From assembly GCA_965116065.1 (NCBI GenBank), contig OZ220485.1, positions 5,040,347-5,104,346 on the forward strand: 64,000 nucleotides of DNA. Reading direction: 5' to 3'. Source of the DNA: Bryobacterales bacterium (GTDB taxonomy: Bacteria > Acidobacteriota > Terriglobia > Bryobacterales > UBA6623). Under the pieces are notes generated by a model. The model was not told where the DNA came from, did no database searches, and was given only the letters and a program-made list of their open reading frames with translations. Within the stretch, counting starts at the first letter, position 1; each line of letters begins with the position of its first letter. The translations under genes and the position numbers were made by a program. This document shows, in pieces, positions 712 through 61,438 of the stretch.

Positions 712-2083
712 GCTTCGACCGCCTGCGACGAGCGTCGATGATCGTTTCCGCCAGCTGTCGACTGCGACGGATGCAGTCTGGAATCCCCAGACCGGTATAG
801 CCGTTCCCGGCCAGCAGCAATCCGGGGAGGGTTGCCAGCCGTTGTTCAATCGAGCGGACGAGCCGGTCATGGCCCACCCCGTATGCCGGCATCGACCCCG
901 GCCAGCGATACACCCGGCTGCCAAGGAGCGGCGCGTCGAAGCCCATCCATCCGCGCAGTTCTGCTGCGACCATGCGCGCCACGCTCTCGTCGTCGGCCTG
1001 CAGCGCCTCCTTGGCGCGGTCACCCGTGAGAAATGCCCGCAGGAGCACCCGGTCCGGACCCGCCCGGCCCTCGAACTTGGTACCGACCCAGGTGCAGGCA
1101 GCAACGCTGGCCCGTTCGATGCTGGGTACCAGGAATCCGAAACCGTCGAGCGGATGGCCGAAGTCATCCCTCCTGTACGAGAGTGCGACCACGACCGACG
1201 AGGTGTACCGAATCGTGCCGAGGTGCCCGGCCAGGTCCGGGATCTCCCCTTGCAGCAGGCGGCCGGCTTCGTGCGCGGGAACGGCCAGAATCACGGCATC
1301 GGCCTCGAAGGACCCCTCATCCAGGCGGAGGGTCCACCGGCAGCCCTGCCGGCGGACCCGGAGTACCCGGCGGTGCACGACTTCGCAATGCTCTTCGATC
1401 CGGCGTTCCAGTGCCCCGACAAGGGAGCCCAGGCCATCACGGAGCGTCAGGAACAGTGGGCCGTCCATACGCCGACGGCGGTTCCGGAACGTGCCCCGCA
1501 GGATGCTGCCGTACCGCCGCTCGTATTCCACGAACCGCGGCATGACCTGCATGGCCGAGAGGTGGTCGGGTTGCGCGCCGTAGACACCGGCCATCATCGG
1601 CTGAGCCAGGTAGGCAACCGCCTCGGTTCCGAAGTGCTCGCGGACGAATTCCGCCACGGAGCGGTCCGGCCGCGTGCCAGGACGGTGAAACCACTCCGCG
1701 ATGATCCGCGCCTTTGCGGCGGGACCGAACAGGCGGGTGGTCAGAATCTGCCACGGCTTTGCCGGCGCCAGCATCCGCATGCTGTCCGGCAGGGGCACCA
1801 GCCGTTCGTCCCTGACCACGTAGGTTCTCTTGCGCCGGTCATTGGACCCGATGACCTGGGCGCCGAGGCCAAGCTCCTCGACGAACGACCGCATCCAGCG
1901 CTTCTCGGCGAGCCAGCTGTCCGGCCCCGCCTCCAGCAGGCAGCCGTGAGCACGCTCCGTGCGGAGCAGACCGCCAGTCCGCTCCCGGCATTCGAACAGC
2001 GTGCAGGGAATCTGCCCACGGCTCAGGTAGTAGGCCGCCGCCAGCCCGGATATGCCCCCACCGACAATCGCCACGCCTGTCAT
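683..2083 (-). CDS. hemY: FAD-dependent protoporphyrinogen/coproporphyrinogen oxidase (HemY type)
   Basis: The start MTGVAIVGGGISGLAAAYYL is a Rossmann GxGxxG motif at ATG 2081-2083. The longer 645-aa ORF in the track is an Arg/Gly-rich upstream extension. ATGA overlap with the hemE stop. Confidence 0.85.
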   Translation of the reverse strand: MTGVAIVGGGISGLAAAYYLSRGQIPCTLFECRERTGGLLRTERAHGCLLEAGPDSWLAEKRWMRSFVEELGLGAQVIGSNDRRKRTYVVRDERLVPLPDSMRMLAPAKPWQILTTRLFGPAAKARIIAEWFHRPGTRPDRSVAEFVREHFGTEAVAYLAQPMMAGVYGAQPDHLSAMQVMPRFVEYERRYGSILRGTFRNRRRRMDGPLFLTLRDGLGSLVGALERRIEEHCEVVHRRVLRVRRQGCRWTLRLDEGSFEADAVILAVPAHEAGRLLQGEIPDLAGHLGTIRYTSSVVVALSYRRDDFGHPLDGFGFLVPSIERASVAACTWVGTKFEGRAGPDRVLLRAFLTGDRAKEALQADDESVARMVAAELRGWMGFDAPLLGSRVYRWPGSMPAYGVGHDRLVRSIEQRLATLPGLLLAGNGYTGLGIPDCIRRSRQLAETIIDARRRRSKLTQGNGGQS

Positions 2084-3123
2084 GCGGCCGATTCGTGGGC
2101 ATGCTCGCGAACCATCCGCACCACGGCACGGACATGCTCGACCGGTGTCTCGGGAATGATGCCGTGACCGAGATTGAAGATGTGCCCCGGCCGCCCGGCG
2201 GCAGCATCCAGCACCGCTGCAACCTTCGTGCGCAGTTCCCCAAGGGGGGCGAGCAGGGCGATCGGATCGAGATTGCCCTGAACGGCCACATCCGGCCCGA
2301 CCCGGTCCCATGCAGCGCCAAGGTCCACACGCCAGTCGAGGCCCAACACATCGCCGCCCGCCCGCCGGAATAGTTCCAGGTAGGAACCGTTGCCGGTTCC
2401 GAAATGGATGACCGGGACGCCCTCGGCCTGCACGCGCCGGATGAGGTCCCTCGAGTACGGCAGGGCGAACCGCTCGTAGTCCGCGGGCGACAGCGCACCC
2501 ACCCAACTGTCGAAGACCTGAATCGCACTGGCTCCGGCCGCTACCTGGGAGGCGGCGAAAGGCGCCAGCACCTCGACAGCCTTCTCCATGAGATCCTGCC
2601 AGACGGCCGGGGCCTCCCACATCAGGCCCTTGGTCCTGGCATAGTGGCGCGACCCGCGCCCTTCGATCATGTAGCTGGCGAGAGTGAACGGTGCCCCGAC
2701 GAACCCGATGACCGGTACGCGCTCGCCCATCTGCCGCCGCACAAGCGCAATGGCCTCACCCACATAGCCCAGATCGTCGGCACGTCCGGTGGCGAGTCTG
2801 CGGACATCGTCGACGGACCGGACGGGCGGGTCGATCCGCGGGCCGTCGCCGCTGACGAACTCGACCCGGAGCCCCATCGCCTCGAGAGGCAGCAGAAGAT
2901 CGGCGAAGATGATCGCCGCATCCACGTCGAGCGTGTCGATCGGCTGCTGGGTGACCTCGGCTGCCAGCCGCGGTGACTTGCAGATTTCCAGGATGGAATG
3001 GCTGCGACGCAGCCGGCGGTACTCCGCCATGTATCGACCGGCCTGGCGCATGAACCAGACCGGCGCGCAGTCGGTAGCTTCGCGGGCACAGGCGCGAAGG
3101 AATCTGTCACGCATTCCTATCAA
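2080..3123 (-). CDS. hemE: uroporphyrinogen decarboxylase
   Basis: The N-terminus ...PVWFMRQAGRYMAEYR... is the HemE signature. Length is 347 aa. The stop overlaps the hemY start. Confidence 0.95.
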   Translation of the reverse strand: MIGMRDRFLRACAREATDCAPVWFMRQAGRYMAEYRRLRRSHSILEICKSPRLAAEVTQQPIDTLDVDAAIIFADLLLPLEAMGLRVEFVSGDGPRIDPPVRSVDDVRRLATGRADDLGYVGEAIALVRRQMGERVPVIGFVGAPFTLASYMIEGRGSRHYARTKGLMWEAPAVWQDLMEKAVEVLAPFAASQVAAGASAIQVFDSWVGALSPADYERFALPYSRDLIRRVQAEGVPVIHFGTGNGSYLELFRRAGGDVLGLDWRVDLGAAWDRVGPDVAVQGNLDPIALLAPLGELRTKVAAVLDAAAGRPGHIFNLGHGIIPETPVEHVRAVVRMVREHAHESAA

Positions 3124-3266
3124 TATACCAGCAACCGAATCAAATCACTGTAATACCATTACTTACGTTCTACCCGCACCAGCTGCGCGAGGGAGGGGAG
3201 AACGGGGCCTGATTCTCGAACGCACGATGTTTTCTTGGTCGGAGACTGGGTTAGTTGAGAGTGTGA

Positions 3267-5249
3267 GGCAGAGGGCCGGGAACGACGGGCCGGACGGGGC
3301 TGGATGTTTCGTGCTGGATCTGTCAGAGTGGAGCCATGGAATCGTCACCGCGGATGCTGGACAGTGTGGACCTGCAGGCCGTGCAGGTGCGCGCGACTTG
3401 CGGAGCGCAGGAACACCGGCTCTGGGACCGGCTGGTCGCCGCGCACCATTACCTGGGATTCGGCTCCCTGTTCGGCAAGGGTCTGCGGCAGGTGGCCACG
3501 CTGGACTCGGCCTGGGTGGCGCTGGTGGGCTGGCAGGCGGCGGCGCTGAAGCTCACGGTTCGGGACCGCTGGCTGGGGTGGACGCTCGAGCAGCAGTTGC
3601 AGCGTCTGCATCTGGTGGCCCAGAACTCCCGATTCCTGATCCTGCCGGCGTTCCAGCGCATTCCGAATCTGGCCTCGCGGGTGCTGGGGCTGAGCCTGCA
3701 GCGGCTGGCGCAGGACATGCAGCGGGAGCACGGCTACCGGGTGCTGCTGGCGGAATCGTTCGTGGACCGGGCGCGTTTCGCGGGCACCTGCTACCGGGCC
3801 GCGAACTGGCGTTCGCTGGGATTCACGGGCGGCTACGCCCGCGAGCCGGGACCGCCTCCGAGGTGGCGGCCCCACGGACAACCGAAAGAGGTAATGGTGT
3901 ACGAACTGGAAGCGGGAGCCCGGGCGGCGCTGAGTCAAGCGGAGGAGGATCCGAGCTGGCAGGGTCCGGCACGGGAGGCCCCCCCACCGGCGGCGCAGTT
4001 GCGCAGCCTGTTCGACTGTCTGAGCGAGGTGGAGGACTACCGCTGTGCGCGGGGGCAGCGCTATCCCCTGCGCACGGTGCTGACGCTGGCCATCGCCGCG
4101 CGTCTCGCGGGGTACCGGGGCGTGACGGCGTTCGCCGAGTTTGCGGCCTTGCTGGATCAGGAGCAGCGGCGGACGGTGGGCTGTTTCTTCAGCCCCAGCC
4201 AGCAGTGCTACACGACCCCCTCGATCACGACCTTTCACAATACCTTGGCCGGCCTGCCGCCGGAGACGCTTGAGCGGTCGATGTCGGCATTGGCCCAGCA
4301 GCAGAGCGGACAAGTCGTGACGGAGGAGGGGGATATGAAGCCCCTGAAGGCCACTGGCGAGGAGTCGCCGGCACCGGTCGAGACGCCCGCGCAGCTGCCG
4401 CTGTTCGCCGGTATCGCGATGGACGGCAAGGATGTGCGGGGCGCCTCCCGGCAGACCGCAGAGGGACGGCGGATGATGGTGGCGGCCGTCGAGCACGGCA
4501 GTGGTCTGGTGCTGGGACAGATCGAGGTGGGCAGCAGGACCAACGAGATTCCCGCCGTGTGCGAGCTGGCGGGGCGGCTGGAGTTGCGGGGGCGGATCGT
4601 CACCTTCGAAGCCCTGCACGCCCGGCAGTCGACCACCCGCCTGTTGCGCCAAGAGTGCCAGGCCCACTACCTCGTCACGTCGGTCAAGGGCAACCAGCCG
4701 ACCATCCTCGACGACCTCCAGCACCTGTCCTTTGACGGGTCCCCCGGCTGCGAAACGCTCGACATGGAACACGGTCGGATCGAACAGCGCCGCTACTGGG
4801 TGCAAGACCTGTCGGACCCGGCCTGGAACGGCTATGCCGACCTCAACGATCGGCGGCAGGCTATCCGCATCGAACGGCAGACCTGGCATGGCAAGACCGG
4901 CCAGACCACGGTCGCCGTGTGCTACGCGCTGACCTCGCTGTCCGCCGAGGAGTCCACGCCCGCGCAGTTGGTGGCCCTGATCCGCCGGCACTGGCACATC
5001 GGGAACCGTCTGCATTCCGGGCGGGACTTCACCTGTGACGAGGACCGCTGTCGGGTCGCGGTGCGCCATCTGCCGCGCAACCTGGCCTGTCTGACCACCG
5101 TCGCGATCTCGCTCATCCGCTGCCAGTCGCCGTTCGAGGGCATCCCGACCGCCAACCGCTACTACGCGGCCCGTTCGCAGTCCGCCCTCAACCTGCTGCT
5201 GGACCCGCCACCGGGCTGAGCCCCCTCACCGCTCCCGGCCCGCCTTGCC
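3267..5249 (+). mobile_element. putative ISAs1-family insertion sequence (boundaries tentative)
   Basis: An imperfect inverted repeat flanks the transposase gene. The left arm is ggcagagggccgggaacg (3267-3284). The right arm is cgctcccggcccgccttgcc (5230-5249), whose reverse complement reads ggcaaggcgggccgggagcg. No target-site duplication was verified. Confidence 0.3.
3336..5219 (+). CDS. DUF4338 (DruA-like) N-terminal domain fused to an ISAs1-family DDE transposase
   Basis: The N-terminal ~200 aa carry HHYLGF...GLRQVA...NSRFLILP...NLASRVL...ESFVD..RF.GTCYRAANW, the DUF4338 pattern. The middle has LFDCLSEVEDYRCARGQRYPL (DDE_Tnp_1_assoc-like). The C-terminus has IAMDGKDVRGA and RRHWHIGNRLHSGRDFTCDEDRCRV, the ISAs1 signature. 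Confidence 0.8.
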   Translation: MESSPRMLDSVDLQAVQVRATCGAQEHRLWDRLVAAHHYLGFGSLFGKGLRQVATLDSAWVALVGWQAAALKLTVRDRWLGWTLEQQLQRLHLVAQNSRFLILPAFQRIPNLASRVLGLSLQRLAQDMQREHGYRVLLAESFVDRARFAGTCYRAANWRSLGFTGGYAREPGPPPRWRPHGQPKEVMVYELEAGARAALSQAEEDPSWQGPAREAPPPAAQLRSLFDCLSEVEDYRCARGQRYPLRTVLTLAIAARLAGYRGVTAFAEFAALLDQEQRRTVGCFFSPSQQCYTTPSITTFHNTLAGLPPETLERSMSALAQQQSGQVVTEEGDMKPLKATGEESPAPVETPAQLPLFAGIAMDGKDVRGASRQTAEGRRMMVAAVEHGSGLVLGQIEVGSRTNEIPAVCELAGRLELRGRIVTFEALHARQSTTRLLRQECQAHYLVTSVKGNQPTILDDLQHLSFDGSPGCETLDMEHGRIEQRRYWVQDLSDPAWNGYADLNDRRQAIRIERQTWHGKTGQTTVAVCYALTSLSAEESTPAQLVALIRRHWHIGNRLHSGRDFTCDEDRCRVAVRHLPRNLACLTTVAISLIRCQSPFEGIPTANRYYAARSQSALNLLLDPPPG

Positions 5250-8380: not shown

Positions 8381-8468
8381 GCGCACGGACGAGACCGGGA
8401 TCGACGGAGACCCGGGCCCCGCCGAGCGGATTCGCCACTGTGGTAGCCTGACTAGCGGTAACACAGGC

Positions 8469-9362
8469 ATGAAACGCCGAGACTTCATTCGCCACGCCTT
8501 GGCTGCCGGGGCTCCGGTCGCCGCTGTCCAGAAGGGCCTGTTCGGAGCGACCACCGGGTATGCAGAGAATCCGACCCGGCGGTATGCGCAGGACAGGGTC
8601 TCCCTCGGACCAGACGGGTTGCGACCGTCCAGGCTCGCCATGGGAACCGGGACCAGCGGATTCCGCGGAGCATCGAACCAGACGCGCAAGCTCGGTGTCC
8701 GTGGTGTCGTCGACCTGTACCGGTTCGGGTTCGACAACGGCCTCAACTTCTGGGACACCGCTGACGGCTACGGCAGTCACCCGCACCTCAAGACCGCGCT
8801 GCAGCATGTCCCCCGCGAGCAGGTGGTCATCATGACCAAGTCCACATCCCCGACGGCCAAGGGCATGCGGGACGACATCGAGCGCTTCCGCAGGGAACTG
8901 GGGACGGACTACATCGATCTGCTGCTGCTGCACGCCGTCCGCGAGGAGGACTGGCCCGTCCAGCGAGCCGGTGCCATCGAGATCCTCAACGAGTACAAAC
9001 AGAAGGGCATCATTAGGTCCCGGGGCATCTCCTGCCATTCGCTCCCGGCACTCCGGCAGGTCCACAAGCAGGATTTCATCGACGTGGACCTGGCCCGGGT
9101 CAACGCGGTCGGCGCAAGGATGGATGCGGATCCCGCAACCGTCGTCGACGAACTGTGCAGGATCAAGGCCGCTGGCAAGGGCGTGATCGGCATGAAGATC
9201 CTCGGTGAAGGAGTCCTGCGCAACCGCGTGGGCGAGGCACTGCAGCATGCCATGGCACTGGATTGCATCGACTGCTTCACGATCGGAGCGGAGAATCGGT
9301 ACGAACTCGCAGGCCTGATCCGGAGAATCCCCGAAGCGTCGACACTGGGCTGGGTAGCCTAG
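8469..9362 (+). CDS. aldo/keto reductase with TAT signal
   Basis: The MKRRDFIRHALAAG twin-arginine leader starts at ATG 8469. The FWDTADGYG motif is present. Confidence 0.85.
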   Translation: MKRRDFIRHALAAGAPVAAVQKGLFGATTGYAENPTRRYAQDRVSLGPDGLRPSRLAMGTGTSGFRGASNQTRKLGVRGVVDLYRFGFDNGLNFWDTADGYGSHPHLKTALQHVPREQVVIMTKSTSPTAKGMRDDIERFRRELGTDYIDLLLLHAVREEDWPVQRAGAIEILNEYKQKGIIRSRGISCHSLPALRQVHKQDFIDVDLARVNAVGARMDADPATVVDELCRIKAAGKGVIGMKILGEGVLRNRVGEALQHAMALDCIDCFTIGAENRYELAGLIRRIPEASTLGWVA

Positions 9363-9375
9363 AAGGGAGCGACTC

Positions 9376-9819
9376 ATGAAACCCGCGAGCTGGGCAGCAC
9401 TTCTGGCAGCCGTGAGTCTATCGGCAGCAGCCTGCCAGGGTGCGCCGGAAGGCCAGCGCAGCGACCGGGCGGAATCGTCCGGGGGCTCCGTGGCCAAGAC
9501 GAAGGAACTGAACGTGGAACAGGTGTCCGAACGACTGGCCGTCGGCGAGGAGATCACCCTGCTGGACGTGCGAACTCGCGAAGAACTCACAACCGACGGT
9601 GCGATCGAGGGATACCTGCACATTCCGATCGACGAGCTGGAGGCGCGACTGGCGGAAGTCCCGAAGGACAAGCCGATCGTGGCCTATTGACGGCGCGGCG
9701 GCAGGGCCTCCCGTGCGGCGGCCATCCTTCGCGACAACGGCTTTGAAGGTGAGATCCAGACCGGGGGCATTGAGGCCTGGAAGGCTGCCGGCAAGGCAGT
9801 GGTTCATCCGACGGAATAG
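9376..9819 (+). CDS. lipoprotein rhodanese-domain sulfurtransferase interrupted by an in-frame TGA (9688-9690) exactly at the catalytic Cys position; candidate selenoprotein or pseudogene
   Basis: Lipobox LSAAAC. The rhodanese fold reads LLDVRTREE...PIVAY-[TGA]-RRGGRASRAAAILRDNGF...GGIEAWKAAG. The frame continues open to TAG 9817-9819. Confidence 0.6.
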
Positions 9820-9878
9820 TCGCTGGTTCCGACGGCCGACAGGCATCTCCAGCACCGGACTGCTGCTATAGTCTGGCC

Positions 9879-11045
9879 ATGCTCCGCAGGCAGTTCCTGG
9901 CGGCATCCGCCGTGGCGGTTCTGCCCTTGCCCGCCGAGCCCCGCTACCGTGTGGGCGTGATCGGTGACACCGGGCGCGGGAACTACGGCCATGGCATCGA
10001 TAGCGTGTGGTCCGCCTTCCCGCAGGCCCGGGTAGTGGCGGTAGCCGACCCGGATCCCGAGGGCCGGGCCAAGGCCCGGAATCGCACCGGCGCTGCGACG
10101 GCGTATGCCGACTACCGCCAGCTGCTGGAGCACGAGAGACCGGACATCGTCAGCATCTGTCCCCGGCACACGGACCAGCGGCTGGCGATGGTTACGGCGG
10201 CAGCCCGCGCCGGCTGCCACATGTACCTGGAAAAACCGTTCGCGGCAACCCTCACGGATGCCGACCGGATGGTCGCGGCCATCCGCAAGGCCGGAGTCAA
10301 GGTCCAGGTCGCGCACCAGATGCGGCGGTCGCCCTTCACCCTGAAGGCCCTTGCACTGATCGAAGCCGGTGAGATCGGCGAGATTCACGAGGTGCGCGGT
10401 CGGGGCAAGGAGGACTTTCGGGCAGGTGGTGAGGATCTCGTGGTCCTCGGATCGCACATCTTCGACATGATGCGGGTGATTCTCGGTGACCCGCACTGGG
10501 TGTTCGCCCATATCACCACGGACGGCGAAGAACTCGAGTTCGACCATCTGACCACGCCCAGGGAGCCGATCGGACCGGTGGCAGGACGCCAGATGGCGGC
10601 CATGTTCTCGTTCGGCGACGGGCGACATGGCTTCTTCGGAACCAAGGAGTCCGGCGCCACGCATCCGTGGCGTTTCGGAACTCACATCTACGGCACCAAG
10701 GGCCGGATCTTCCTGCCCAACCAGATCTACAGTGCGAACTCGGAAGGGTTCATTCTGCGGAGTCCGGCGTGGGTGCCGGACACCGGAAACACCTGGAAGC
10801 GGCTCGCTCCCGAGCCCCGCAGTTTCGGCGACGAGCACTACCTGACAGCGAACGCGCTCATGGTGGAGGATCTGCTGGATGCCATCGAAAAGGACCGGGA
10901 ACCAGCCTGCAGCGAACGGGCGGGGCGCTGGACCATCGAGATGATCCAGGGCATGTACGGGTCGCAGATCGACCGGGCGGTCAAGGACTTTCCGCTGTCG
11001 GACCGGCAGCACCCGCTCGAGAACCTGCGCCATGCGCCGGCCTGA
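9879..11045 (+). CDS. Gfo/Idh/MocA-family oxidoreductase with TAT-like signal
   Basis: [10 protein letters not shown] leader. Rossmann motif [16 protein letters not shown]. Length is typical of the family. Confidence 0.85.
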
Positions 11046-12183: not shown

Positions 12184-13209
12184 ATGGCTCTCTCGACATC
12201 ACCCGAAACATGGAGGCCATTGACGGGGATGCCTCCGGAGGCCAGAAGCTGGGCCCGGACCGGTTCTCGGGATAACGAAAGCGAATGGGCCCTCATCCAG
12301 ACGAAACTGAAGAGCGGTCCACAGCGCCGGTTCATCGATGCATGGTTGCAGGAACGCGGCCGTCTCTTCGCCGTCGAGACCGGACAGATCGAGGGCCTGT
12401 ACACACTCCGGCGGGGAATTACGGAGCAGATCATCGTTGAAGGTCTCGCATCGGTAGCCGGTTCCCACACTCTCGAGAACATTGACGACGACACGATCCG
12501 CGGACTGCTCCAGGATCAGGAAACCGCCTACAACCTGCTTTTTTCCGATGTCGTGGATGCTGTTGGTCTTACCCAACACAAGATCAAGACCTGGCATCAG
12601 CTCCTAACGCAGCATCAGGAGACCGTGGCTGGACTGATGCCGGACGGGGACCGGATGCGTCGGGTGCAGGTGCCGTTTCGGGAGAAGGGACAGTGGAAGA
12701 CGATCCCAAACAATCCGCGTCGTACCGACGGCAGGATTCACGAATACTGTCCACCGGAACATGTCCAGGGAGAGATGGATCGGTTCATCGAACTGCACAG
12801 GGAGATCGAGGCCGCGCAGTATCCGGTGGAGACCGAAGCGGCGTGGATGCACCATCGCTTCGTGCGCACTCATCCCTTCCGGGACGGCAACGGTCGCGTC
12901 TCGCGCATGCTGATGGCTTACGCCTACATCAGGAGGGGGTTGCCCCCTCCCATCGTTTCCAGCACCAACCGCCCGGCCTACATTCGATCACTCGAAATGG
13001 CGGACCGCGGGAACCTCAAGCCATTCAACGATTTCCTGCACGTATACGCCACAGCCACCCTGCAGGAGGCCATTGCCATCGGCAATCTCGCGCTGGAGGG
13101 TCATCTGGAACGGCCCAATGGCAACGGTGGTCGCACCGTAGTGGACAAGTATCAACCGCCGGGCGAAGGAGAAACCGACCGGATTCGCGAGCACCTTGGG
13201 GAGGGATGA
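12184..13209 (+). CDS. Fic-family protein (class II, intramolecular inhibitory motif)
   Basis: Fic motif HPFRDGNGRVSR. The upstream SHTLEN matches the (S/T)xxxE(G/N) inhibitory-helix motif. The exact start is uncertain. Confidence 0.85.
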   Translation: MALSTSPETWRPLTGMPPEARSWARTGSRDNESEWALIQTKLKSGPQRRFIDAWLQERGRLFAVETGQIEGLYTLRRGITEQIIVEGLASVAGSHTLENIDDDTIRGLLQDQETAYNLLFSDVVDAVGLTQHKIKTWHQLLTQHQETVAGLMPDGDRMRRVQVPFREKGQWKTIPNNPRRTDGRIHEYCPPEHVQGEMDRFIELHREIEAAQYPVETEAAWMHHRFVRTHPFRDGNGRVSRMLMAYAYIRRGLPPPIVSSTNRPAYIRSLEMADRGNLKPFNDFLHVYATATLQEAIAIGNLALEGHLERPNGNGGRTVVDKYQPPGEGETDRIREHLGEG

Positions 13210-13546: not shown

Positions 13547-14211
13547 CTACCGGGATCGCCTTTCTCCGGTGACCAGATCGTACCTCCACTCCGTGACGAT
13601 GGCGTGGCGTGGCCGCCAAGCCGCACCAGAGGCGAACGACTCGAACTGATACGCCCCCTTGAGTGCGTGACCGGACGCGAAACGCCAGCGAAATCCGAGC
13701 CTCGATCGGGTCCGAACGAAGCCTTCCCGCCGGAAAGCCAGCGACTGATGGAACCACGGCGAAATCGGAGCACTGGGTCGTTCCATGTCAACCTGCTGGC
13801 GGTAGCGGTTAAAGTCGAGGATGTCCGGTCGGCCGAAATGACGCTCGTACAGCGTGGTGCCCACCACAGTCAGGGCCCGCTGGAGGATCGGATACCTCAG
13901 GCCTGCAACCAATCGGTGGTCCGAGCCGAAGCCGAATTCCGGCAGGACCTGCTCCCGCAGGATGTAGTCGAGCCGCAGATCCACGTCATCCGAAAGCGCC
14001 ACTGCCAACTTCGCCGTGGCTCGTCGATCATACAGGCTCCGCAGCGACTCGCGGATACGGGCAACCCCACCTACCGTTACTTCCACCGGGTCCGTGTCAA
14101 GGATCCTGACGTCTACGTCCGACCAGGACTCCAGATCACCTGCCACCAGTGATGGTGTCGTCAGCAGATACAGACACAACAGCAGGCCCTGAACCGGGAC
14201 GGATCGGCCAT
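13547..14211 (-). CDS. DUF2490-like outer-membrane protein, probably frameshifted in its signal peptide
   Basis: The body (...RLDYILREQVLPEFGFGSDHRLVAGLRYP...GHALKGAYQFE...) resembles DUF2490. The only good start is ATG 14209-14211 (MADPSRFRA), which sits one frame off. Joining it needs a 1-nt shift near 14185 to reach LLLCLYLLTTPSLVAG. Confidence 0.45.
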
Positions 14212-14562
14212 GAGTACGGGAACACCGTCCGTCGTCCGTGCAGGTCCGGTCCCGTCCTTTCCGGCCAGCGCGACACGAAGCGGTTGTTCTACGGCGCACT
14301 CCAGATCCAAGGCGACGCACCGTGCACCGGATGGATACCCAGCCTAGTCGTCCCGAGCCGACCAAGACTCCCCCCTCGGCTGCAGTCCGTTCAGTGTCCG
14401 CACCGCCCATCTCGCACCGGCTCCGGGCGTTGCCGGGCCCGAAGCCGCCATCCCACCAGCCTGAATCCTCCTGCCGCGGATGGTGTTGGCGGATTTCGCC
14501 ATCGTACCAGTACCCGGGGAGGTCCGCACCGCAATGCCCCCGCAGGGGTAGAATGCACGGCA

Positions 14563-15354
14563 ATGCAACACCTGCCGGAGCAGCTTCGTGACTGCCGGAT
14601 GATCGATTTGGCGCAACCCTACTACGTGGGCATGCCGCACCACCCGAATCACCCTCCCTATCTGTATGGCCTGAGCAAGGCTCATGGCGAGATTCGCCGG
14701 CAGGGAGTCAGCGCGGCAGCGGAATCCATCGCCTTCGGGGGCCATGTCGGCACCCACATCGACGCCCTCTGCCACTTTTCCTACAAGGGCAAGTTGTTCG
14801 GAGGGGTCGACGCCATCGGCTGCCAGTCCTACGGAACTGGACTCTCCGAACACCATGTCGACACGATAGAGCCGATCTTCCGGCGCGGCGTCCTGGCCGA
14901 CATCGCCGCCACCCAAGGTGTCGATGTGCTGACGGAGGATTTCGTCGTGGACGCTGACTGCCTTGCGACGGCCATGGACCGCGCGGAGATCGAGATCCGG
15001 ACGGGCGACATCGTTCTGGTCCGGACGGGCTGGGCCCGCTACTGGGGTGAACCGGGCCGGTTCATCAACGGCCTGCGCAATCCCGGAGTGAACCGGGAGG
15101 CTGCCGAGTGGCTGAGCAGGAAGGGTGTGTTCGCGGGAGGATCCGACACCGTCGCCTTCGAGTTCCAGCCGGCACCGACCATGCCGGTACATGTTCACCT
15201 GCTCGTGGAGAGCGGCGTTCACATCATCGAGGCACTCAATCTCGAGGAGCTCTCGTCGGAGGGTGTTCACGAGTTCCTGTTCGTGGCCTCGCCGTTGCGT
15301 ATCCAAGGCGGGACAGGCTCTCCGATTCGGCCCGTGGCGCTATTTCCGGGCTGA
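14563..15354 (+). CDS. cyclase-family protein (kynurenine formamidase-like)
   Basis: Start MQHLPEQL at ATG 14563. Motif GGHVGTHIDALCHF (HxGTHxDxxxH). Confidence 0.8.
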   Translation: MQHLPEQLRDCRMIDLAQPYYVGMPHHPNHPPYLYGLSKAHGEIRRQGVSAAAESIAFGGHVGTHIDALCHFSYKGKLFGGVDAIGCQSYGTGLSEHHVDTIEPIFRRGVLADIAATQGVDVLTEDFVVDADCLATAMDRAEIEIRTGDIVLVRTGWARYWGEPGRFINGLRNPGVNREAAEWLSRKGVFAGGSDTVAFEFQPAPTMPVHVHLLVESGVHIIEALNLEELSSEGVHEFLFVASPLRIQGGTGSPIRPVALFPG

Positions 15355-16693: not shown

Positions 16694-17377
16694 ATGACAC
16701 TCCACGAACAGGACGGCTCCATCCCCCCCGAGCAACTCCAGACGCTCCTCTCCTCCATCCGTCGCTCTCCGTCCCACCCCGGTCGCTTCCTCCTCGAAGC
16801 CGCCCACAACAAATCCCTCAGCCTCCCCCAGGCCGCCCGCCAGATCGGCGTCGACGTCGCCTCACTCTCCCGCATTACCGAGGGCCGCGCCCCGGTAAGA
16901 CCCCAACTCGCCCTCCGCCTCGAAACGGCTGGCTGGGCCAGCGCCCATACCTGGCTCCGCCTGCAAACTCAGTACGACCTCGCCCAAGCACGCCGCAATC
17001 GCAAAGCCGCCTGGCCCTCCCGGCTCCGTCCACGCGCCCGCAAATCTCATCACCCACCTCGAAACCAGGCAGGGCCGCCATCGGCCGCGCTCCAGCGCGT
17101 CCCGTGTGTAGGAGAAACCTGGGCGCCGTATTGGGGAACGGGCTATTGCCAATTCCGGGACTTGGTGGATCCGCCCAGCCATTCGAGGACGGGGACCGTC
17201 TCGAAGCCGTGGCCATCGTGTTGGATGGACAGGTGGGCCGGCCCCACGAACCGCGCGGCTCAGGCCCGGAGTCCAGCAGGACGGGCTCGCGACCCGCTCC
17301 ACGATCTCGACAGAAGTGGTTTCCTCGAGAACCCGATTTCAGCGCCACAGCCGCTGCATTCGGATCCCGCCAGCTAA
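16694..17377 (+). CDS. higA: HigA-family XRE antitoxin (HTH in first ~100 aa) with an abnormal long C-terminal tail
   Basis: HPGRFLLEA...SLSLPQAARQIGVDVASLSRITEGRAPVRPQLALRLE...WLRLQTQYDLAQAR is HigA-like. The remaining ~125 aa are Pro/Arg-rich and run into the tandem array. Confidence 0.65.
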   Translation: MTLHEQDGSIPPEQLQTLLSSIRRSPSHPGRFLLEAAHNKSLSLPQAARQIGVDVASLSRITEGRAPVRPQLALRLETAGWASAHTWLRLQTQYDLAQARRNRKAAWPSRLRPRARKSHHPPRNQAGPPSAALQRVPCVGETWAPYWGTGYCQFRDLVDPPSHSRTGTVSKPWPSCWMDRWAGPTNRAAQARSPAGRARDPLHDLDRSGFLENPISAPQPLHSDPAS

Positions 17378-17739
17378 ACCCACAGACGGACCAGGATGCC
17401 CAGAACCGTCACCGCTACGGGCACCATCCAGAGCAGCATCCGCAGCTTGGTGTCAAGCGCGGCCAACTGCCCGGCCTGTTGCGCGCTCATGGTCTCGATG
17501 CGCGCATTCTGGGTGTCCAGCTTGCCCTCGAAGCTTGCATTCTGGGCGTCCAGCTTGGACTCGAAACTTGCATTCTGGATGTCCAGCTTGGACTCGAAAC
17601 GCGCGATCAGGTTCGCCGCCGCCATGTTCTCGACCTCCTGTACCAGAGTATATGCCTCTTCGTCGTCCAGTCCCAGCTTGCGGAACAGCAGGAAAACCCG
17701 CTTGGGGTCAGGATCCGGAGGGGGCGTTGGCGTGGACAT
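17374..17739 (-). CDS. small tail-anchored coiled-coil protein (DUF1640/XhlA-like architecture), copy A1
   Basis: The 121-aa protein has an MSTPTPPPDPDP...LGLDDEEAYTLVQEVENMAAANLIARFE head. Three 11-aa repeats follow (ESKLDIQNASF and variants). The C-terminal TM is LLWMVPVAVTVLGILVRLWV. Confidence 0.6.
   Translation of the reverse strand: MSTPTPPPDPDPKRVFLLFRKLGLDDEEAYTLVQEVENMAAANLIARFESKLDIQNASFESKLDAQNASFEGKLDTQNARIETMSAQQAGQLAALDTKLRMLLWMVPVAVTVLGILVRLWV
17500..17598. repeat. 3 x 33-bp in-frame tandem repeat inside copy A1
   Basis: The units lie at 17500-17532, 17533-17565 and 17566-17598. Copy A2 has one unit (18539-18571). Copy A3 has two (19498-19563). Confidence 0.85.
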
Positions 17740-17958
17740 GTGCGGAACACCATCCTAACGAGAGTCCACCGAGTCGGTCGCAACCTCGCTGGCGGATGGA
17801 TTCCCTGTTGCGCCTCTGAGCGCGATCCGGCATCGGGAATGGCCCGCCCGGGTGCCGTCGGGCACTCCTACCCCGGCCGTCAACCGTTACGGGCGTATTC
17901 TGACCGACCCCAAGACAGTGCTGCTCCGAGAGCAGCCCGAAAGGCTCTCTGCAGTGTT

Positions 17959-18228
17959 TCACTGGCCGAAGATAAGATAGAAGATCCTCGCAGCCAAGCC
18001 GAGCATGGTGGTACCGAAGATCGCCACAAGCACCACCAGCAGCCAGCGGGTCGAATCCAGCGTGGACTCGAAACGGGCAATCAGGATATCGACCGCCAGG
18101 TTCTCCAACCCTTGAACGAGAGTGTACGCCTGCCCGCCTTCAAGACCCCTTGGCGGGCAAGTTCGCACCACTGCCTCTGCCACTCCCGCCTCGTCAGGCC
18201 CCAAGAGCATGCCGCCAGCCAGGATCAC
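17959..18228 (-). CDS. small tail-anchored protein, paralog B1 (short relative of gene A)
   Basis: ...GQAYTLVQGLENLAVDILIARFESTLDSTRW plus the TM LLVVLVAIFGTTMLGLAARIFYLIF. The start is GTG 18228 or ATG 18210. Confidence 0.4.
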   Translation of the reverse strand: MILAGGMLLGPDEAGVAEAVVRTCPPRGLEGGQAYTLVQGLENLAVDILIARFESTLDSTRWLLVVLVAIFGTTMLGLAARIFYLIFGQ

Positions 18229-18412
18229 GAACCAATTCCCGGACTTGGGGGATCCGCCCAGTCGTTCGAGGAAGGGAACCGGTTCAGATCCCCGACCGTC
18301 GCGTTGTACGGTCGGTCTCGCGACCCGCTTTGGATATCTACGGTCTCGACAGAACCGGTTTCTTGGAGAACCCGATCTCAGCGCCACAGGCGCGTCATTC
18401 GGCTCCCGCCAG

Positions 18413-18712
18413 CTAAACCCACAGACGGACCAGGATGCCCAGCACCGTCACCGCTACGGGCACGATCCAGAGCAACATCCGCAGCTTGGTGTCAAGCGCG
18501 GCCAACTGCCCGGCCTGTTGCGCGCTCATGGCCTCGATGCGCGCATTCTGGATGTCCAGCTTGGACTCGAAACGCGCGATCAGGTTCGCCGCCGCCATGT
18601 TCTCGACCTCCTGTACCAGAGTATATGCCTCTTCGTCGTCCAGTCCCAGCTTGCGGAACAGCAGGAAAACCCGCTTGGGGTCAGGATCCGGAGGGGGCGT
18701 TGGCGTGGACAT
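18413..18712 (-). CDS. small tail-anchored coiled-coil protein, copy A2
   Basis: The 99-aa protein is identical to A1 over the first ~57 aa and carries a single 11-aa repeat. Confidence 0.6.
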   Translation of the reverse strand: MSTPTPPPDPDPKRVFLLFRKLGLDDEEAYTLVQEVENMAAANLIARFESKLDIQNARIEAMSAQQAGQLAALDTKLRMLLWIVPVAVTVLGILVRLWV

Positions 18713-18931
18713 GTGCGGAACACCATCCTAACGACAGTCCACCGAGTCGGTCGCAACCTCGCTGGCGGATGGATTCCCTGTTGCGTCTCTGAGCGCGATC
18801 CGGCATCGGGAAGGGCCCGCCCGGGTGCCGGCGGGCGCTCCTACCCCGGCCGTCAACCGTTACGGGCGTATTCTGACCGACCCCAAGACAGTGCTGCTCC
18901 GAGAGCAGCCCGAAGGGCTCTCTGCAGTGTT

Positions 18932-19195
18932 TCACTGGCCGAAGATCAGAAAGAAGATCCCCGCCGCCAAGCCGAGCACGGTGGTACCGAAGATCGCCAC
19001 ATGCACCAACAGCGGCCAGCGGGTCGAATCCAGCGTGGACTCGAAACGGGCAATCAGGATATCGAACGCCATGTTCTCCAACCCCTGAACGAAAGTGGAC
19101 GCCTGCCCGTCTTCGAGACCCCTTGGTGGGCAAGTTCGCACCACTGCCGCCACCGCCTCGTCAGGCCAAAGGAGCATGCCGCCAGCCAGGATCAC
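18932..19195 (-). CDS. small tail-anchored protein, paralog B2
   Basis: An 87-aa protein homologous to B1 (FVQGLENMAFDILIARFESTLDSTRW plus a TM). Confidence 0.4.
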   Translation of the reverse strand: MILAGGMLLWPDEAVAAVVRTCPPRGLEDGQASTFVQGLENMAFDILIARFESTLDSTRWPLLVHVAIFGTTVLGLAAGIFFLIFGQ

Positions 19196-19371
19196 GAACC
19201 AATTCCCGGGCTTGGGGGATCCGCCAAGTCGTTCGAGGAAGGGAACCGCTTCAATGCCCTGGCCGCCGCGTTGTACGGACGGTCTCGCGACCCGCTCTAC
19301 GGTCTCGACAGAACTGGTCTCCTCGAGAACCCGATTTCAGCGCCACAGCCGCTGCATTCGGATCCCGCCAG

Positions 19372-19704
19372 CTACCCCCACAGACGGACCAGGATGCCCA
19401 GCACCGTCACCGCTACCGGCACCATCCAGAGCAACATCCGCAGCTTGGTGTCAAGCGCGGCCAACTGCCCGGCCTGTTGCGCACTCATGGCCTCGATGCG
19501 CGCATTCTGGATGTCCAGCTTGGACTCGAAACTTGCATTCCGGGCATCCAGCTTGGACTCGAAACGCGCGATCAGGTTCGCCGTCACCATGTTCTCGACC
19601 TCCTGTACCAGAGTCTATGCCTCTTCGTCGTCCAGTCCCAGCTTGCGGAACAGCAGGAAAACCCGCCTGGGGTCAGGATCCGGAGGGGGCGTTGGCGTGG
19701 ACAT
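19372..19704 (-). pseudogene. copy A3 with a premature stop
   Basis: It has the same start as A1/A2 (ATG 19702-19704). The Tyr codon of ...EEAYTLV is TAG here (19615-19617). Only an internal 72-aa ORF remains. Confidence 0.6.
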
Positions 19705-20560
19705 GTGCGGAAGACCATCCTAACGAGAGTCCACCGGGGCGGCCGCAACCTCGCTGGCGGATGGATTCCCTGTTGCGCCTCTGAGCGCGATCCGGCACTG
19801 GGAAGGGTCCGCCCGGGTGACGCTGGGCGCTCCTACCCCGGCCGTCACCCGTAACGGGGTCTTCTGACCGACTACAGAGCCAGTCCTATTCCGGAAGCAA
19901 GGACTGTGTGGGGAACACCGATTCTGGGCCAACAATCATCCGCCCCGCCCCTCGCTGTCGAACCGATGTCGAACCGAACTGGGCTGAGTGGTTGACGCCA
20001 TCAAGCGCTTGCGCCCTTGCAGCCGTATCCGGTCAGTCCTCGGTGCCAGGAGTTCCCAACTCGGCGAACGACTCCTGTGAGTGTCTCCCGGTTCCCTCTC
20101 GGTCCCGACCCTTCGCTCCAGCGCAAGCGTCTCTCTGGATACTCACTGGGACGAGTCCGCTTCCGGCACAATGCGACTCTGAAGCCGCTGGCGGTGCTGA
20201 TGCTCGGCGTCAGCCTCACAATCAAGGGCCTGCTCCTCTCTCATGCAGGCATGCACATCGAATTGCAGATTGCGGATCGAATTGTCGACGCACTCCGGAT
20301 CCATCTCGCGTGCTACTGGCTCGGTCGACCGACTGGTGCGCGGACCGCAGGAATGTCCTTCAACGAGAGATGAGCCTGAGCGGGGCTCAGCGGGGGCAGC
20401 GGGCATCATCGGAGGATGATCTTGTATCGTGATCTCATCACCCACTTCGACCTGGATAACTTGCTGGCACCCACATACGCTTGAAGCAGAAGATCTCCGT
20501 CGTGAGTCACGCGACCAGCAATGTTGCCGCTGACGGAGCACTAGAATGTGTTGTCAGAAC

Positions 20561-23213: not shown

Positions 23214-24245
23214 TTAGCGTCGCTTCAACCCGACCGGGGTTCTAAACAGATTCTTGACGGCTTTCGTCATGGCCGCAGCACCCGTATATCCCCGCAAGCG
23301 GGACGAGATGATGCCGTCCCGCCCGATTACAACCGTTGTCGGTATCGCCATGACACCATAGCGCTGAAACACCCGGCCGGCTTCATCGTGAAGGGCAAGA
23401 TAGCTGATTTCCCGTTCCGCAAGGAACTCTCGCGTGACGTTGGGCTTCTCGTCGCTGACACCTAGCACAACCAGCCCGTCGTTCGCGTACTTCTCGTGCA
23501 ACCGCTGCAGTTGCGGGAGTTCCTTCCGGCAGGGACCGCACCACGTTGCCCAGAAGTTCAGCACCACGACCTGGCCACGCAGATCGGAGAGTCGCACCCT
23601 GGAACCGTCAAGATCCGGCAGGTCGAAGTCGGGAGCCATCGCACCAGGAACTGGCAACGGACCGGAGGCGGACCCACTGGGCGGTCGCTCGCTGAACTTG
23701 AGCGGGGCCCTCCGTACCAGTTCTTCCGAGATCGCGGACCGCAGCGTCTTGTTTCTGGGTAGTCGCAGGAACGCACAACGATGATCTCTCTGAGACGCGT
23801 GCAGGCTCAGCCAGTACGGGCTTCGCAACTTTCGGAGCAGATAAACGGAGTGTCCACCCGCCAACATCCCACCCACCTGATAGGCTGCTTGGCTGACGCC
23901 TCCCGTAGCAACAATCAGAGCTACTGATGGCAACACGGACCACCAGAAGAAACTGTCGAACAGCGGAACTCCCAAATGATGTCGGCCCCGACGAACGGCG
24001 AGTTCTCCATATGTGAATCGCTCCGGAGCCTCACCTCTGACTTCGACGATCACAAGATCTTCGGTGAATACGAGCCGAGCCTTCCTGAGATTGCCGTCAC
24101 CGAGCCTTCCGCGGATACCCGCCGAGAACTCGACGGGCTCGTCGGCTATCTGCTCCGGCACTGCCGGCCTAGCAGCAGCGGGGGTGAGTCCAAGTACCAG
24201 GACCAAGGCGATGCGCATCATCCAGGAGATCACTGCCTTGCTCAC
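23214..24245 (-). CDS. TlpA/ResA-like thiol:disulfide oxidoreductase with an extra N-terminal membrane region
   Basis: WATWCGPCRKELP thioredoxin motif. GTG start at 24243-24245. Confidence 0.8.
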   Translation of the reverse strand: MSKAVISWMMRIALVLVLGLTPAAARPAVPEQIADEPVEFSAGIRGRLGDGNLRKARLVFTEDLVIVEVRGEAPERFTYGELAVRRGRHHLGVPLFDSFFWWSVLPSVALIVATGGVSQAAYQVGGMLAGGHSVYLLRKLRSPYWLSLHASQRDHRCAFLRLPRNKTLRSAISEELVRRAPLKFSERPPSGSASGPLPVPGAMAPDFDLPDLDGSRVRLSDLRGQVVVLNFWATWCGPCRKELPQLQRLHEKYANDGLVVLGVSDEKPNVTREFLAEREISYLALHDEAGRVFQRYGVMAIPTTVVIGRDGIISSRLRGYTGAAAMTKAVKNLFRTPVGLKRR

Positions 24246-31486: not shown

Positions 31487-34400
31487 ATGAGGATCGTTCC
31501 GAACACCGGCACCGTTCGGGTGGTCGATATCGTCCGCCCCTGGCTCAGGGGTGGCAATCGGGTCGATCTCGCGTCCCGAACGTTGTCGCTCTTTGCTTTC
31601 GGTGAGCTTGCCGGAGATCTTGCCCGCCTGGACGGCGCGCGGCTCGTCCTGCCGTCTGACGAGGCCGAGTTCGACTTCCTAGGATCCGTCGTGGACCGCG
31701 CCGCCCGCAATCGACTTCAGGCCCGCTGGCTCGCCGGACATTGCACGAAATGGATCGAGAGGGTGGCTGAGGTGCGCAGGGCAAACGGGGCCGTTCCACA
31801 GGGGGCGATCGTGCTGCGCAACCGTGACGATCATGCGAGGCAGGCCCTGATCGGTTCATTCTCATTCAGTACAGACGGGCTCGGCCTCGCACCGGGTAAT
31901 CCGCTCAACCTGATTCAGGCGTCCGAAGCCCCTGAAGAGGGCGAACGGCTGGGCGAGTGGTTTGACGCGCAGTGGTGTGGACTAACGGAAGGCGACGCCG
32001 CAAAATCAGACTTGATTGCGGCATTGCGCGGCATCGCCGCGCACCGCGCTCCTTTCGCCATCTACTCATTGATCCTGCATCACATCTTGCGGATTGATGG
32101 AGGTGAACTCGACGAGGAGACGGTCGTCAATTCGTCGACCGGAATCCGTGAGACGGAAGTCTGGAAGAGGCTGTTCAAGTTCCAGCGTGACGGGGTCGTC
32201 GGTGCCATAGACAAGCTCGCGCGGTTCGGCGGTTGCATCATTGCCGACAGTGTGGGACTCGGGAAGACATTCGAGGCTCTTGCGATCATCAAGTACCACG
32301 AGCTTCGGAACGACCGTGTTCTCGTGCTCTGTCCGAAGCGCCTGCGCGACAACTGGACCCTGTACCGGGCGAACGATCGCCGCAACATTCTTGCCCGAGA
32401 CCGCTTCAACTACGACATTCTCAATCACACCGATCTGTCCCGCGACGCTGGCCGATCTGGCGATATCGACCTCGCCCATGTGAACTGGGGCAACTACGAT
32501 CTCGTGGTGATCGACGAATCGCACAACTTCCGCAACAAGCGGTCGCCCCGACAGGGTGGTCAGACGCGCTACGACCGGCTCATGCACCGAATCGTCCAAG
32601 ACGGCGTGAAGACGCGGGTCCTGATGCTGTCGGCCACTCCGGTAAACAACCGGCTGGCCGACCTACGCAACCAGATCGCCTTCGCTACTGAAGGAGACGA
32701 CACGGCGCTGGAGAGTCACGGCGTTACCAGCATCGACGGCACCACGCAGCGGGCGCAGAAGCAGTTCAACCGCTGGCTGGATCTGGACGATGCCGAACGT
32801 ACTCCGTCCCGACTCATCGACATGCTGGGGTTCGATTACTTCACGCTGCTGGACCGACTTACCATCGCCCGCTCCCGTCGTCATCTGGAAAAATACTACG
32901 GAGACAGCGACACTGTCCGCTTCCCGGAGCGGCTGAAGCCCATCAATGTGAAGCCGGATGTCGATCTTGCGGGCGACTTTCCCTCGGTTCGCGACGTCAA
33001 TACGGAGATCCGTCGGCTGAATCTCGCCGCCTATGCGCCACTGCGCTATGTTCTGCGGCACAAGGAGGCAAAGTACGACGAGAAATACAGCACTCAGCTT
33101 CGTGGCGGAGGTGGAACGTTCCGGCAACTGGACCGCGAGAAGAGTCTTATCCAACTTCTGCGCGTGAACGCGCTGAAGCGCATGGAGAGTTCGGTCGCCT
33201 CTTTCGCACTGACCGTGAAGCGCCAGCTGGCCGATGTCGAGGCTCTGCTTGCCCGCATCGAGACACAACCGGACGAACTGGAGGATATCGACATCACCGA
33301 TGTCGATATCGAGGACCCGGCCTTCGAAGGCCTTCTGGTCGGCCACAAGGTCAAGGTTCTGCTCCAGGATGTCGATCCGATCCGCTGGCGGCAGGATCTG
33401 ATCGAGGATCGGAACCGGCTGACAACACTGCATGCCGCGGCCAACCAGGTGACCGTCGAACGCGATGCCAAGCTGGCCGAACTGCGATCAATGATCGAGC
33501 GGAAGTTCCATGACCCGATCAACGCCGAGAACCGCAAGGTCATAGTGTTCACGGCGTTCGCGGACACAGCACGTTACCTGTACGACGCGCTGGCACCCTG
33601 GGCGCGGGATTCCATCGGACTGCAAACCGCCCTGGTCACGGGGGTCGGGGCCAACCAGACAACCCTGCCGGAGCTACGACGCGACCTCGCTTCCATCCTG
33701 ACCGCCTTCGCGCCCCGCACCAAGGAACGGCCGGACAGCCTTGCGGGCGAAGGAGAGATCGATCTTCTGATCGCGACCGACTGCATCTCCGAAGGCCAGA
33801 ACCTTCAGGACTGCGACTGGCTCGTGAACTATGACATCCATTGGAACCCGGTACGGATCATCCAGCATTTCGGCCGAATCGACCGGATCGGCTCACCCAA
33901 CGAGCGCATCCAACTCGTCAACTTCTGGCCCAACATGGAGCTGGAAGAATATCTCCGTCTGGAACAGCGCGTGAGCGGCCGTATGGTTCTTCTCGACATT
34001 TCCGCAACCGGCGAAGAAAACCTGATCGAGCAGCAGTCGGGGGATCCGATGAACGATCTGGCTTACCGGCGCAAACAACTCCTGAACCTACAGGACGCAG
34101 TGATCGACCTGGATGACCTTTCTTCCGGAGTCTCCATTACCGATCTGACGCTGACTGATTTTCGGATCGACCTGGCAGAGTATCGCAGGGCCAATCCAGA
34201 GCCGCTCGATTCGGTGCCGCTCGGGATGCACGCAGTCGTCATCGCGGCGGACACTGAGATCCCTGTCGGCGCGATTTTCTGTCTGCGAGCCGAAGGCACG
34301 GCCGCAGATACCCAGTTCCACCCAGGCTATCCTCTGGCTCCACACTATCTGGTGCATGTCGGCGAGGATGGCACCGTGCTCCTGCCGTTCACTCAGGGGA

Positions 34401-35406: not shown

Positions 35407-35420
35407 AAGAGAGACGCATC

Positions 35421-37334: not shown

Positions 37335-37362
37335 CAGTGAAGGGTTGGGATCTGACCTATTC

Positions 37363-37617
37363 ATGAACCGGCAGGAGCGACTATTGCAGACTGGCCTGTG
37401 GGGACGGTCTGTCGCGAACATCCGGCTCTTGGATTGGCGAGCCCTGATGGCGTATCTGGTTTTCGAAGAGCGCGTACGCGCCAGCCATCACCTCTTCGAC
37501 CGAGAGGGCGTGGTGGAGATCGTCAACCTGCAGAGCCGCGGCGGTCACGTCAAACCCTTTCAGTTGAAGCAGGTCCGGCAGTTGATTCTGAGATATAGTC
37601 TGGGAAGAGACGACTGA
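37363..37617 (+). CDS. hicA: HicA-family toxin (tentative)
   Basis: The 84-aa protein has ...RASHHLFDREGVVEIVNLQSRGGHVKPFQLKQVRQLI..., which resembles the HicA SH(H/R)xF...core. It sits immediately 5' of hicB with a TGATG overlap. Confidence 0.5.
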   Translation: MNRQERLLQTGLWGRSVANIRLLDWRALMAYLVFEERVRASHHLFDREGVVEIVNLQSRGGHVKPFQLKQVRQLILRYSLGRDD

Positions 37618-60042: not shown

Positions 60043-60142
60043 GTGGACACCCTCTCGGCGGCGGATTCCGGACCAATGTGTTACCTGACGGCGCCGTGGT
60101 CGGCACAACTCCTCGGCGGCACCCACACGGCCACCGGACCGA

Positions 60143-61213: not shown

Positions 61214-61438
61214 GATCCCTCCGTACCTCAGGTAGATTGTATCCACTGCACGGTCCCCGCACGATGTGACGTGGTGATTCGGATCGGAGAGGTCCGGCAG
61301 CAGTCGAGAGGCCAGCCGCTCGTATCTTCCTCCGCAGGCTCGGGTCCGTGGAAACTGGAGAGTCGGCGACTGGTTGAACAGGTCGAGGATCAGCCTGCCC
61401 TGAGCAAGCAGTGCTCCCGGCAGCCCGCGCGGAGAACT

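Follow-up and report, generated by a model that had tools for sequence, protein, structure and literature searches.

A TGA codon at the catalytic site of a Bryobacterales lipoprotein rhodanese very probably specifies selenocysteine

Does the TGA that interrupts a rhodanese gene in this Bryobacterales genome end the protein, or does it encode the catalytic residue? In the window (the whole stretch of 64 kb analysed here), an open reading frame on the forward strand starts at an ATG at 9376, 6 nt after a Shine-Dalgarno-like AGGGAG read from the sequence (9364-9369, +). It runs to ...DKPIVAY and there meets a TGA at 9688-9690. Beyond this codon the frame stays open for 42 codons, RRGGRASRAAAILRDNGFEGEIQTGGIEAWKAAGKAVVHPTE, and is closed by a TAG at 9817-9819. 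An earlier note on this DNA had left two options, a selenocysteine codon or a pseudogene, and our analysis favours the first: positions 9376-9819 (+) very probably form a genuine and so far unannotated selenoprotein gene of 147 codons, of which UGA, codon 105, would place selenocysteine (Sec) at the catalytic site. This reading is supported by the existence of a Sec/Cys pair of orthologous forms, by the occurrence of the TGA in 32 sequences, by purifying selection and by an RNA constraint specific to the Sec forms.

TGA has not been reassigned in this genome, since it is the stop codon of 27 of the 51 strongly coding ORFs of the window. Within these 64 kb, the rhodanese TGA is the only in-frame TGA that has a coding signal on both sides and is not a gene junction, and when the window and the flanks of 47 loci were scanned for more genes with an in-frame TGA, only gene junctions came up. 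The pattern is far beyond chance, and it recurs in 31 other sequences. No in-frame start codon is present in the rest of ORF 9376-9819, downstream of the TGA.

The TGA had been proposed to fall exactly on the catalytic cysteine of a rhodanese, in a frame that continues with rhodanese sequence for 42 codons. Alignments with orthologs and with solved domains bear out the first point, and the second is borne out by the Pfam match of the read-through product (with Cys at the TGA), which spans the TGA (PF00581, E 2.5e-14, 54 bits vs a cut-off of 22.2). The rhodanese domain, as defined by Pfam, by PDB matches and by the ortholog model, covers residues 48-138 (9517-9789, +) and is interrupted by the UGA. 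In solved rhodaneses, the residue aligned with position 105 is the catalytic Cys (3tp9, 'YCRTGGRS'; 5ve3, 'VCRAGGRS'), the active-site loop U-R-R-G-G-R corresponds to the six-residue C-R-x-G-x-R loop of sulfurtransferases, and the C-terminal GGIxxW motif of rhodaneses is conserved downstream of the TGA. The mature protein has no other Cys. We modelled the fold on a Cys ortholog that is 53% identical to the window protein (P0003, AlphaFold). The model has a disordered N-terminal part of about 40 residues followed by a confident rhodanese fold (pLDDT > 95 over residues 41-140), and the top Foldseek matches are rhodanese domains, with target-normalised TM-scores of up to 0.89. In this model the catalytic Cys ends the strand 100-104 and precedes the helix 108-119, so that a product cut at residue 104 would be left without the catalytic loop, two helices and one strand. 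Among solved structures, the nearest relatives by sequence and by fold are rhodanese domains acting on persulfide or polysulfide, as found in persulfide dioxygenase-rhodanese fusions, in CoA-persulfide and NADH-persulfide reductases and in Wolinella Sud.

The N-terminus, MKPASWAALLAAVSLSAAA-C, is shaped like a signal peptide (9376-9435, +) and ends at Cys20 (...SLSAAA-C) in a lipobox-type site, after which comes a low-complexity stretch of some 25 residues, a linker rich in Ala, Glu and Pro. In the window the lipobox has Ala at -3 and fits only the permissive pattern, while relatives have LAGC, VVAC or LLGC. All 21 homologs in the alignment have Cys20. Together with the shape of the signal peptide, this invariance supports the label of lipoprotein that the gene had been given, and suggests that Cys20 is lipid-modified.

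The search of protein databases gave two kinds of homologs. The first consists of about 35 clusters of about 104 residues, all ending in ...KP[IL]VAY; among the matches listed, the gene and its orthologs appear in public protein records solely as such truncated 104-residue products, and an exact look-up of the window's own 104-residue product gave no record. The second kind, found in the same search, consists of full-length homologs of 147-155 residues, which read Y-C-[MHK]-x-G-G-R-A-S-R-A-A. At the nucleotide level, the homologs do carry either Cys or TGA at this site, a check that had been suggested for this gene: Cys is found in close orthologs, and TGA occupies the catalytic codon in 32 sequences, that is, the window, 28 species-representative genomes and 3 metagenome contigs, the latter found by a motif scan of metagenome contigs. 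All 28 genomes are labelled Bryobacterales or Terriglobia (Acidobacteriota). The 32 Sec-form sequences comprise 25 distinct ones over the 48 nt that follow the TGA, and the identities of the orthologs are 54-74%.

Downstream of the TGA the frame counts 42 codons in 29 of the 32 Sec forms, and frameshifts were found in none of them. Synonymous divergence is near saturation on both sides of the codon (pS ~0.55), and the mean pN/pS is 0.39-0.40 downstream vs 0.22 upstream, which indicates that the downstream sequence is under purifying selection. The conservation of the TGA in 32 sequences, the intact 42-codon frame, the pN/pS values and the lack of a downstream start all imply that translation must run through the UGA. 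A UGA retained for so long, ahead of codons that are themselves under selection, cannot act as a stop.

The Cys orthologs come from Bryobacterales and other Acidobacteria (P0003, P0020, P0022 and P0028; loci L026, L028, L029, L034 and L035), and the eight that were aligned are 47-53% identical to the window protein over its full length. They resemble the Sec form in their signal peptide with its invariant Cys, in the linker and in the loop Y-C-x-R-G-G-R-A-S-R-A-A. They differ from it in several respects: they have TGC for TGA and TAC for the TAT before it, their codon choice is free over the block that we propose to contain the Sec insertion element (SECIS), and the adjacent gene for an aldo/keto reductase described below is absent.

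A very sharp mark of this difference lies in the synonymous sites just after the UGA. The block GGGCCUCCCGUGCGGCGGCC (9704-9723, +), at +17 to +36 with the U of UGA as +1, is near-invariant in all Sec forms and is frozen even at its four-fold degenerate sites. We tested six four-fold codons, codons +6 to +11 (GCC TCC CGT GCG GCG GCC): their third-position entropy is 0.09 bit, compared to 1.27 bit at 24 other conserved four-fold codons, and the contrast with the rest of the gene is significant in the Sec forms (permutation p < 1e-5). In the Cys orthologs (n=10), which encode the same amino acids there, the entropy at codons +6 to +11 is 0.76-1.76 bit. Arg+8 is written CGT in 32 of 32 Sec forms and in 0 of 10 Cys forms, and CGT makes up 10% of the Arg codons in the genes of the window. 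The immediate neighbours of the UGA are also fixed (9685-9691, +): the preceding Tyr codon is TAT in all 32 Sec forms vs TAC in 9 of 10 Cys forms, and the base after the UGA is C in 30 of 32 Sec forms. Since this synonymous freeze is found in the Sec forms only, the constraint operates at the level of the RNA and goes together with the UGA. A constraint of this kind right after the UGA is as expected for a SECIS, and that an RNA element exists is well supported.

The exact structure that we give for this element is the best-fitting proposal. It is a hairpin of 19 nt at 9705-9723 (+), that is, +18 to +36. Its pairs are 18-36, 19-35, 20-34 and 21-33, then, after the mismatch 22x32, 23-31 and 24-30; they are drawn solely from invariant columns, and the predicted free energy is -10.1 kcal/mol. 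The apical loop C25-G26-U27-G28-C29 (9712-9716) lies 21 nt after the UGA and has G-U at its positions 2-3. The bacterial SECIS model requires a loop of 3-9 nt with G in one of the first two loop positions followed by U, a stem of 4-16 bp, a spacing of 16-37 nt and at most -7.5 kcal/mol (PMC13188914 Fig. 2). The hairpin 9705-9723 passes these constraints as quoted in the legend of that figure, and its loop, CGUGC, lies outside the optional N1-N2 closing-pair pattern of the model. Of 20000 random synonymous recodings of the peptide, 44 reach -10.1 kcal/mol in the same register. The rare substitutions keep the hairpin: C21U gives a U-G pair, C36U a G-U pair (L010), U22G makes a new G-C pair with C32 (L023 and L031), and L025 and L027 retain a continuous 20-24/30-34 stem. 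A match to the model is weak evidence when taken alone, since the model is loose and finds some hairpin, at varying positions, in 7 of the 10 Cys orthologs, whose sequence is rich in G+C in this stretch.

Two alternative foldings were considered. The hairpin sketched in the earlier note (G14-C29, C15-G28, A16-U27, G17-C25, G18-C24 and G19-C23) uses nucleotides that are indeed present, and its pairs are part of the minimum-free-energy fold of 9688-9760. They are not conserved: this fold uses the variable columns 12, 15 and 16, the pair 15-28 is broken in 9 and the pair 16-27 in 11 of the 25 distinct sequences, uncompensated in both cases, and the loop, CCUC, has no G. The fold of the whole region is no better than that of shuffled sequences (z = +1.64), and we rejected it. 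The second alternative, a hairpin 10-14/20-24, stands 11 nt from the UGA, which is too close for the SECIS spacing, violates the rule of the loop G and leaves the invariance of positions 25-36 unexplained. Covariation cannot separate the proposed hairpin from these two alternatives, because the block is almost invariant. A search with Rfam at gathering thresholds gave no match in the whole 64-kb window.

The SECIS of E. coli fdhF is likewise a hairpin located in the coding region a short way past the UGA, and its apical loop holds an essential G-U; its G23-U24, counted from the U of UGA, we take to be the counterpart of G26-U27 here. The stem proposed here is shorter than that of fdhF (6 pairs and a 1x1 mismatch) and has no bulged U, the apical loop is CGUGC instead of GGUC, and the binding of SelB is a prediction.

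Genes for the Sec machinery were searched for around the locus. The 64-kb window and related loci totalling about 1 Mb yielded no selA, selB, selD or tRNA-Sec. ARAGORN detected no tRNA or tRNA-Sec in the window and 29 related loci, and tblastn with E. coli SelA, SelB and SelD returned, over the window and the first 80 loci, only a weak SelA-like match in the locus L043. We rejected this match as a Sec synthase; it is a PLP enzyme of 516 residues with a Tat signal, a paralog of the SelA family. This protein (L043, 8066-9616, -) carries a twin-arginine-type signal, is apparently exported and is 24% identical to E. coli SelA over 281 residues; automatic searches for selA could mistake exported PLP paralogs of this kind for the real gene. 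At the level of the phylum, Acidobacteria have been credited with 3 selenoprotein families and 4 selenoproteins (PMC1794560 Table 2). The lack of Sec genes in the loci searched counts against the Sec reading, but we give it little weight, given the long retention of the UGA and the selection on the codons that follow it.

How else could these observations be explained? The alternative that fares best, although we regard it as improbable, is a programmed read-through in which a near-cognate tRNA inserts a standard amino acid (Trp, Cys or Arg) at the UGA, stimulated by the conserved RNA and without any Sec. Indeed, the comparative data point to continued translation and to a conserved RNA element, and not to the identity of the inserted residue. 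However, the UGA replaces the sole catalytic nucleophile, a role in which only Sec or Cys can serve, and a lineage in need of Cys would use TGC as its relatives do. Furthermore, the spacing of the hairpin and the G-U in its loop are those of a bacterial SECIS, and Sec has already been described at the catalytic site of rhodaneses. Less probable still is that the 104-residue truncated lipoprotein is the real product, the downstream sequence being conserved for the RNA element or for an antisense ORF of 162 codons that overlaps the region (9418-9906). The downstream substitutions fit coding in the + frame (pN/pS 0.39, with amino acids such as those of GGIxxW kept), and the truncated protein would be a rhodanese cut before its catalytic loop and deprived of three secondary-structure elements.

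The pseudogene option, a nonsense mutation that killed the rhodanese and left its downstream part to decay, must be given an even smaller chance. Gene callers do stop at the TGA, public sources do list the 104-residue product, and no Sec machinery is seen in the 64-kb window. But the same TGA stands in 32 sequences of different species, the frame behind it is intact, of equal length and at a pN/pS of ~0.4, and the synonymous sites beside it are frozen and not decaying; the spread of a single contaminating sequence is excluded by the orthologs' identities of 54-74%. We therefore reject it. Finally, a sequencing or assembly error for TGC or TGT, of which the former is only one base away, has a negligible probability, as the TGA is found independently in complete long-read chromosomes, short-read MAGs and JGI metagenome contigs, and the TGA forms share TAT before the codon and CGT at +8, unlike the Cys forms.

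Under the selenoprotein reading, the product would be a lipid-anchored, periplasm-facing, single-domain rhodanese of 147 residues, with Sec as the nucleophile in U-R-R-G-G-R. Sec-tRNA(Sec), brought by SelB, would decode the UGA at 9688-9690, and SelB may itself be recruited by the mRNA hairpin within the coding sequence (9705-9723), 14 nt after the UGA, with G-U in its apical loop. The U before the UGA and the C after it, both fixed, probably create a weak termination context. Sec105 would then take sulfane sulfur, presumably from thiosulfate, a persulfide or a polysulfide, as an Se-S intermediate and hand it to an acceptor, and the Sec-rhodanese probably acts together with a co-transcribed aldo/keto reductase exported by the Tat pathway.

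This reductase (8466-9362, +; Pfam PF00248) lies directly upstream of the rhodanese gene and starts with a twin-arginine signal (MKRRDFI...). It is found immediately upstream in 28 of 28 TGA-bearing genome loci, with 80-91% identity, and is absent next to the Cys orthologs. In the window only 13 nt, in which the AGGGAG lies, separate its stop from the ATG of the rhodanese, which suggests co-transcription, and the two genes probably form one operon. Downstream, a Gfo/Idh/MocA oxidoreductase identified by Pfam (9879-11045, +), with an N-terminal RR motif (MLRRQFL...), is syntenic in 25 loci; farther upstream lie a DinB-family gene and a gene resembling 3-keto-disaccharide hydrolase. Both oxidoreductases that flank the rhodanese thus start with twin-arginine motifs and belong to enzyme types that are normally NAD(P)-dependent. 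Their export would take place in the folded state, with the cofactor bound, as has been described for the glucose-fructose oxidoreductase of Zymomonas.

We can also consider a more specific function, which we put forward tentatively and think rather unlikely. The Sec-rhodanese lipoprotein and the Tat-exported aldo/keto reductase could constitute a dedicated periplasmic two-protein module of one Bryobacterales clade, for which Sec would be essential. As part of the same proposal, Sec could serve an extracytoplasmic reaction that a rhodanese with Cys would be unable to sustain, such as one with polysulfide, selenite, tellurite or chromate. Many members of the Bryobacterales Sec clade are marine and sponge-associated MAGs.

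Several other regions of the window deserve mention in their own right. A 650-residue ORF (3267-5219, +) has a DruA-like region at its N-terminus (PF14236), joined to DDE transposase domains (PF13808 and PF01609), and sits between hemE (2080-3144, -) and the conserved gene block; as only one syntenic relative matches it (L012), it looks like a genome-specific insertion of a mobile element. A gene of the Fic/DOC family (12184-13209, +; G+C 0.60 vs ~0.65 in its neighbours) has no counterpart in any syntenic locus, where the 11050-11790 gene more closely precedes the cyclase gene (14110-15354), and it is probably an inserted gene. Three large genes next to each other (31487-40837, +) encode an SNF2/helicase of 1065 residues, an N6/N4 DNA methylase of 835 residues and a protein of 988 residues with a ResIII helicase and a C-terminal endonuclease domain. 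With a G+C of 0.53-0.57 in the methylase and ResIII genes vs 0.63 for the window, the group resembles an island for restriction-modification or defence that was gained by horizontal transfer. At 16694-19723 (+), several long ORFs overlap one another (227, 562 and 533 residues), and none of them has a Pfam match. At 23214-24245 (-), a protein of 343 residues joins an N-terminal part without a Pfam match to a C-terminal thiol:disulfide oxidoreductase of the AhpC/TSA type; this family often includes selenoproteins elsewhere, and we rejected this member as one, its WCGPC motif being the Cys form. On the same strand, two long and strongly coding ORFs in different frames (58567-60405 and 60143-61438) share about 260 nt, an overlap that could stem from a frameshift, from a sequencing error or from an ORF that was wrongly extended.

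Rhodanese selenoproteins as such are not new, and the statement in the earlier note that rhodanese-related sulfurtransferases are among the reported selenoproteins is correct (PMC1088965 Table 1; PMC13188914). They have been predicted computationally since 2005, first from three Sargasso Sea metagenome sequences (PMC1088965 Table 1), and then as eight rhodanese-type selenoprotein genes in the Olavius symbionts, where they are abundant (PMC1976440). A 2026 review distinguishes five forms, of which forms 2 and 4 are termed 'rhodanese-related sulfurtransferase' and have the motif UxxG, with MBM9537886.1 and MCY3690685.1 as catalogued representatives (PMC13188914). The gene described here belongs to these UxxG rhodanese selenoproteins, its tie to form 2 or form 4 being one of motif and Pfam family only: it shares with them PF00581 with Sec at the position of the catalytic Cys, a motif, U-R-R-G, that fits UxxG, the existence of Cys homologs and a SECIS-like hairpin whose small apical loop contains a G. 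It differs from them in its Bryobacterales lineage, in its lipoprotein signal and in its constant pairing with the Tat-exported aldo/keto reductase, three features that are apparently new relative to PMC13188914, PMC1088965 and PMC1976440. No NCBIfam model reaches its cut-off on the read-through protein. The model of the CxU form (NF041203, LYCAU) was rejected as an assignment, with 30.3 bits vs a cut-off of 115 and a motif that is here Y-U-R-R and not CxU.

For the function of the protein, the closest guides are Wolinella succinogenes Sud (PDB 1qxn) and E. coli PspE (PDB 2jtq), which are likewise exported, consist of a single rhodanese domain and about 100 residues, and have one catalytic residue; the read-through protein matches them in sequence with E values of 9.7e-9 and 7.4e-5, respectively. 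Both differ from it in being Cys-based, soluble and not lipid-anchored, and in their gene neighbourhoods. By analogy with them, a periplasmic carrier of sulfane sulfur is a likely working model.

In conclusion, this case confirms a known pattern, Sec in place of the catalytic Cys of a rhodanese, and as such opens no new question. If the doubtful two-protein module nevertheless proved true, it would go beyond a mere Sec/Cys swap, as a lipid-anchored extracytoplasmic selenoenzyme with a new partner and a new substrate. The synonymous sites, frozen in the Sec forms and free in the Cys forms, provide a clean natural definition of a short SECIS. A whole clade of Acidobacteriota selenoproteins is missing from annotation, where it is listed as about 35 clusters of 104-residue fragments, and because it is unannotated, any figure for how far these soil, marine and sponge-associated bacteria use selenium would be too low.
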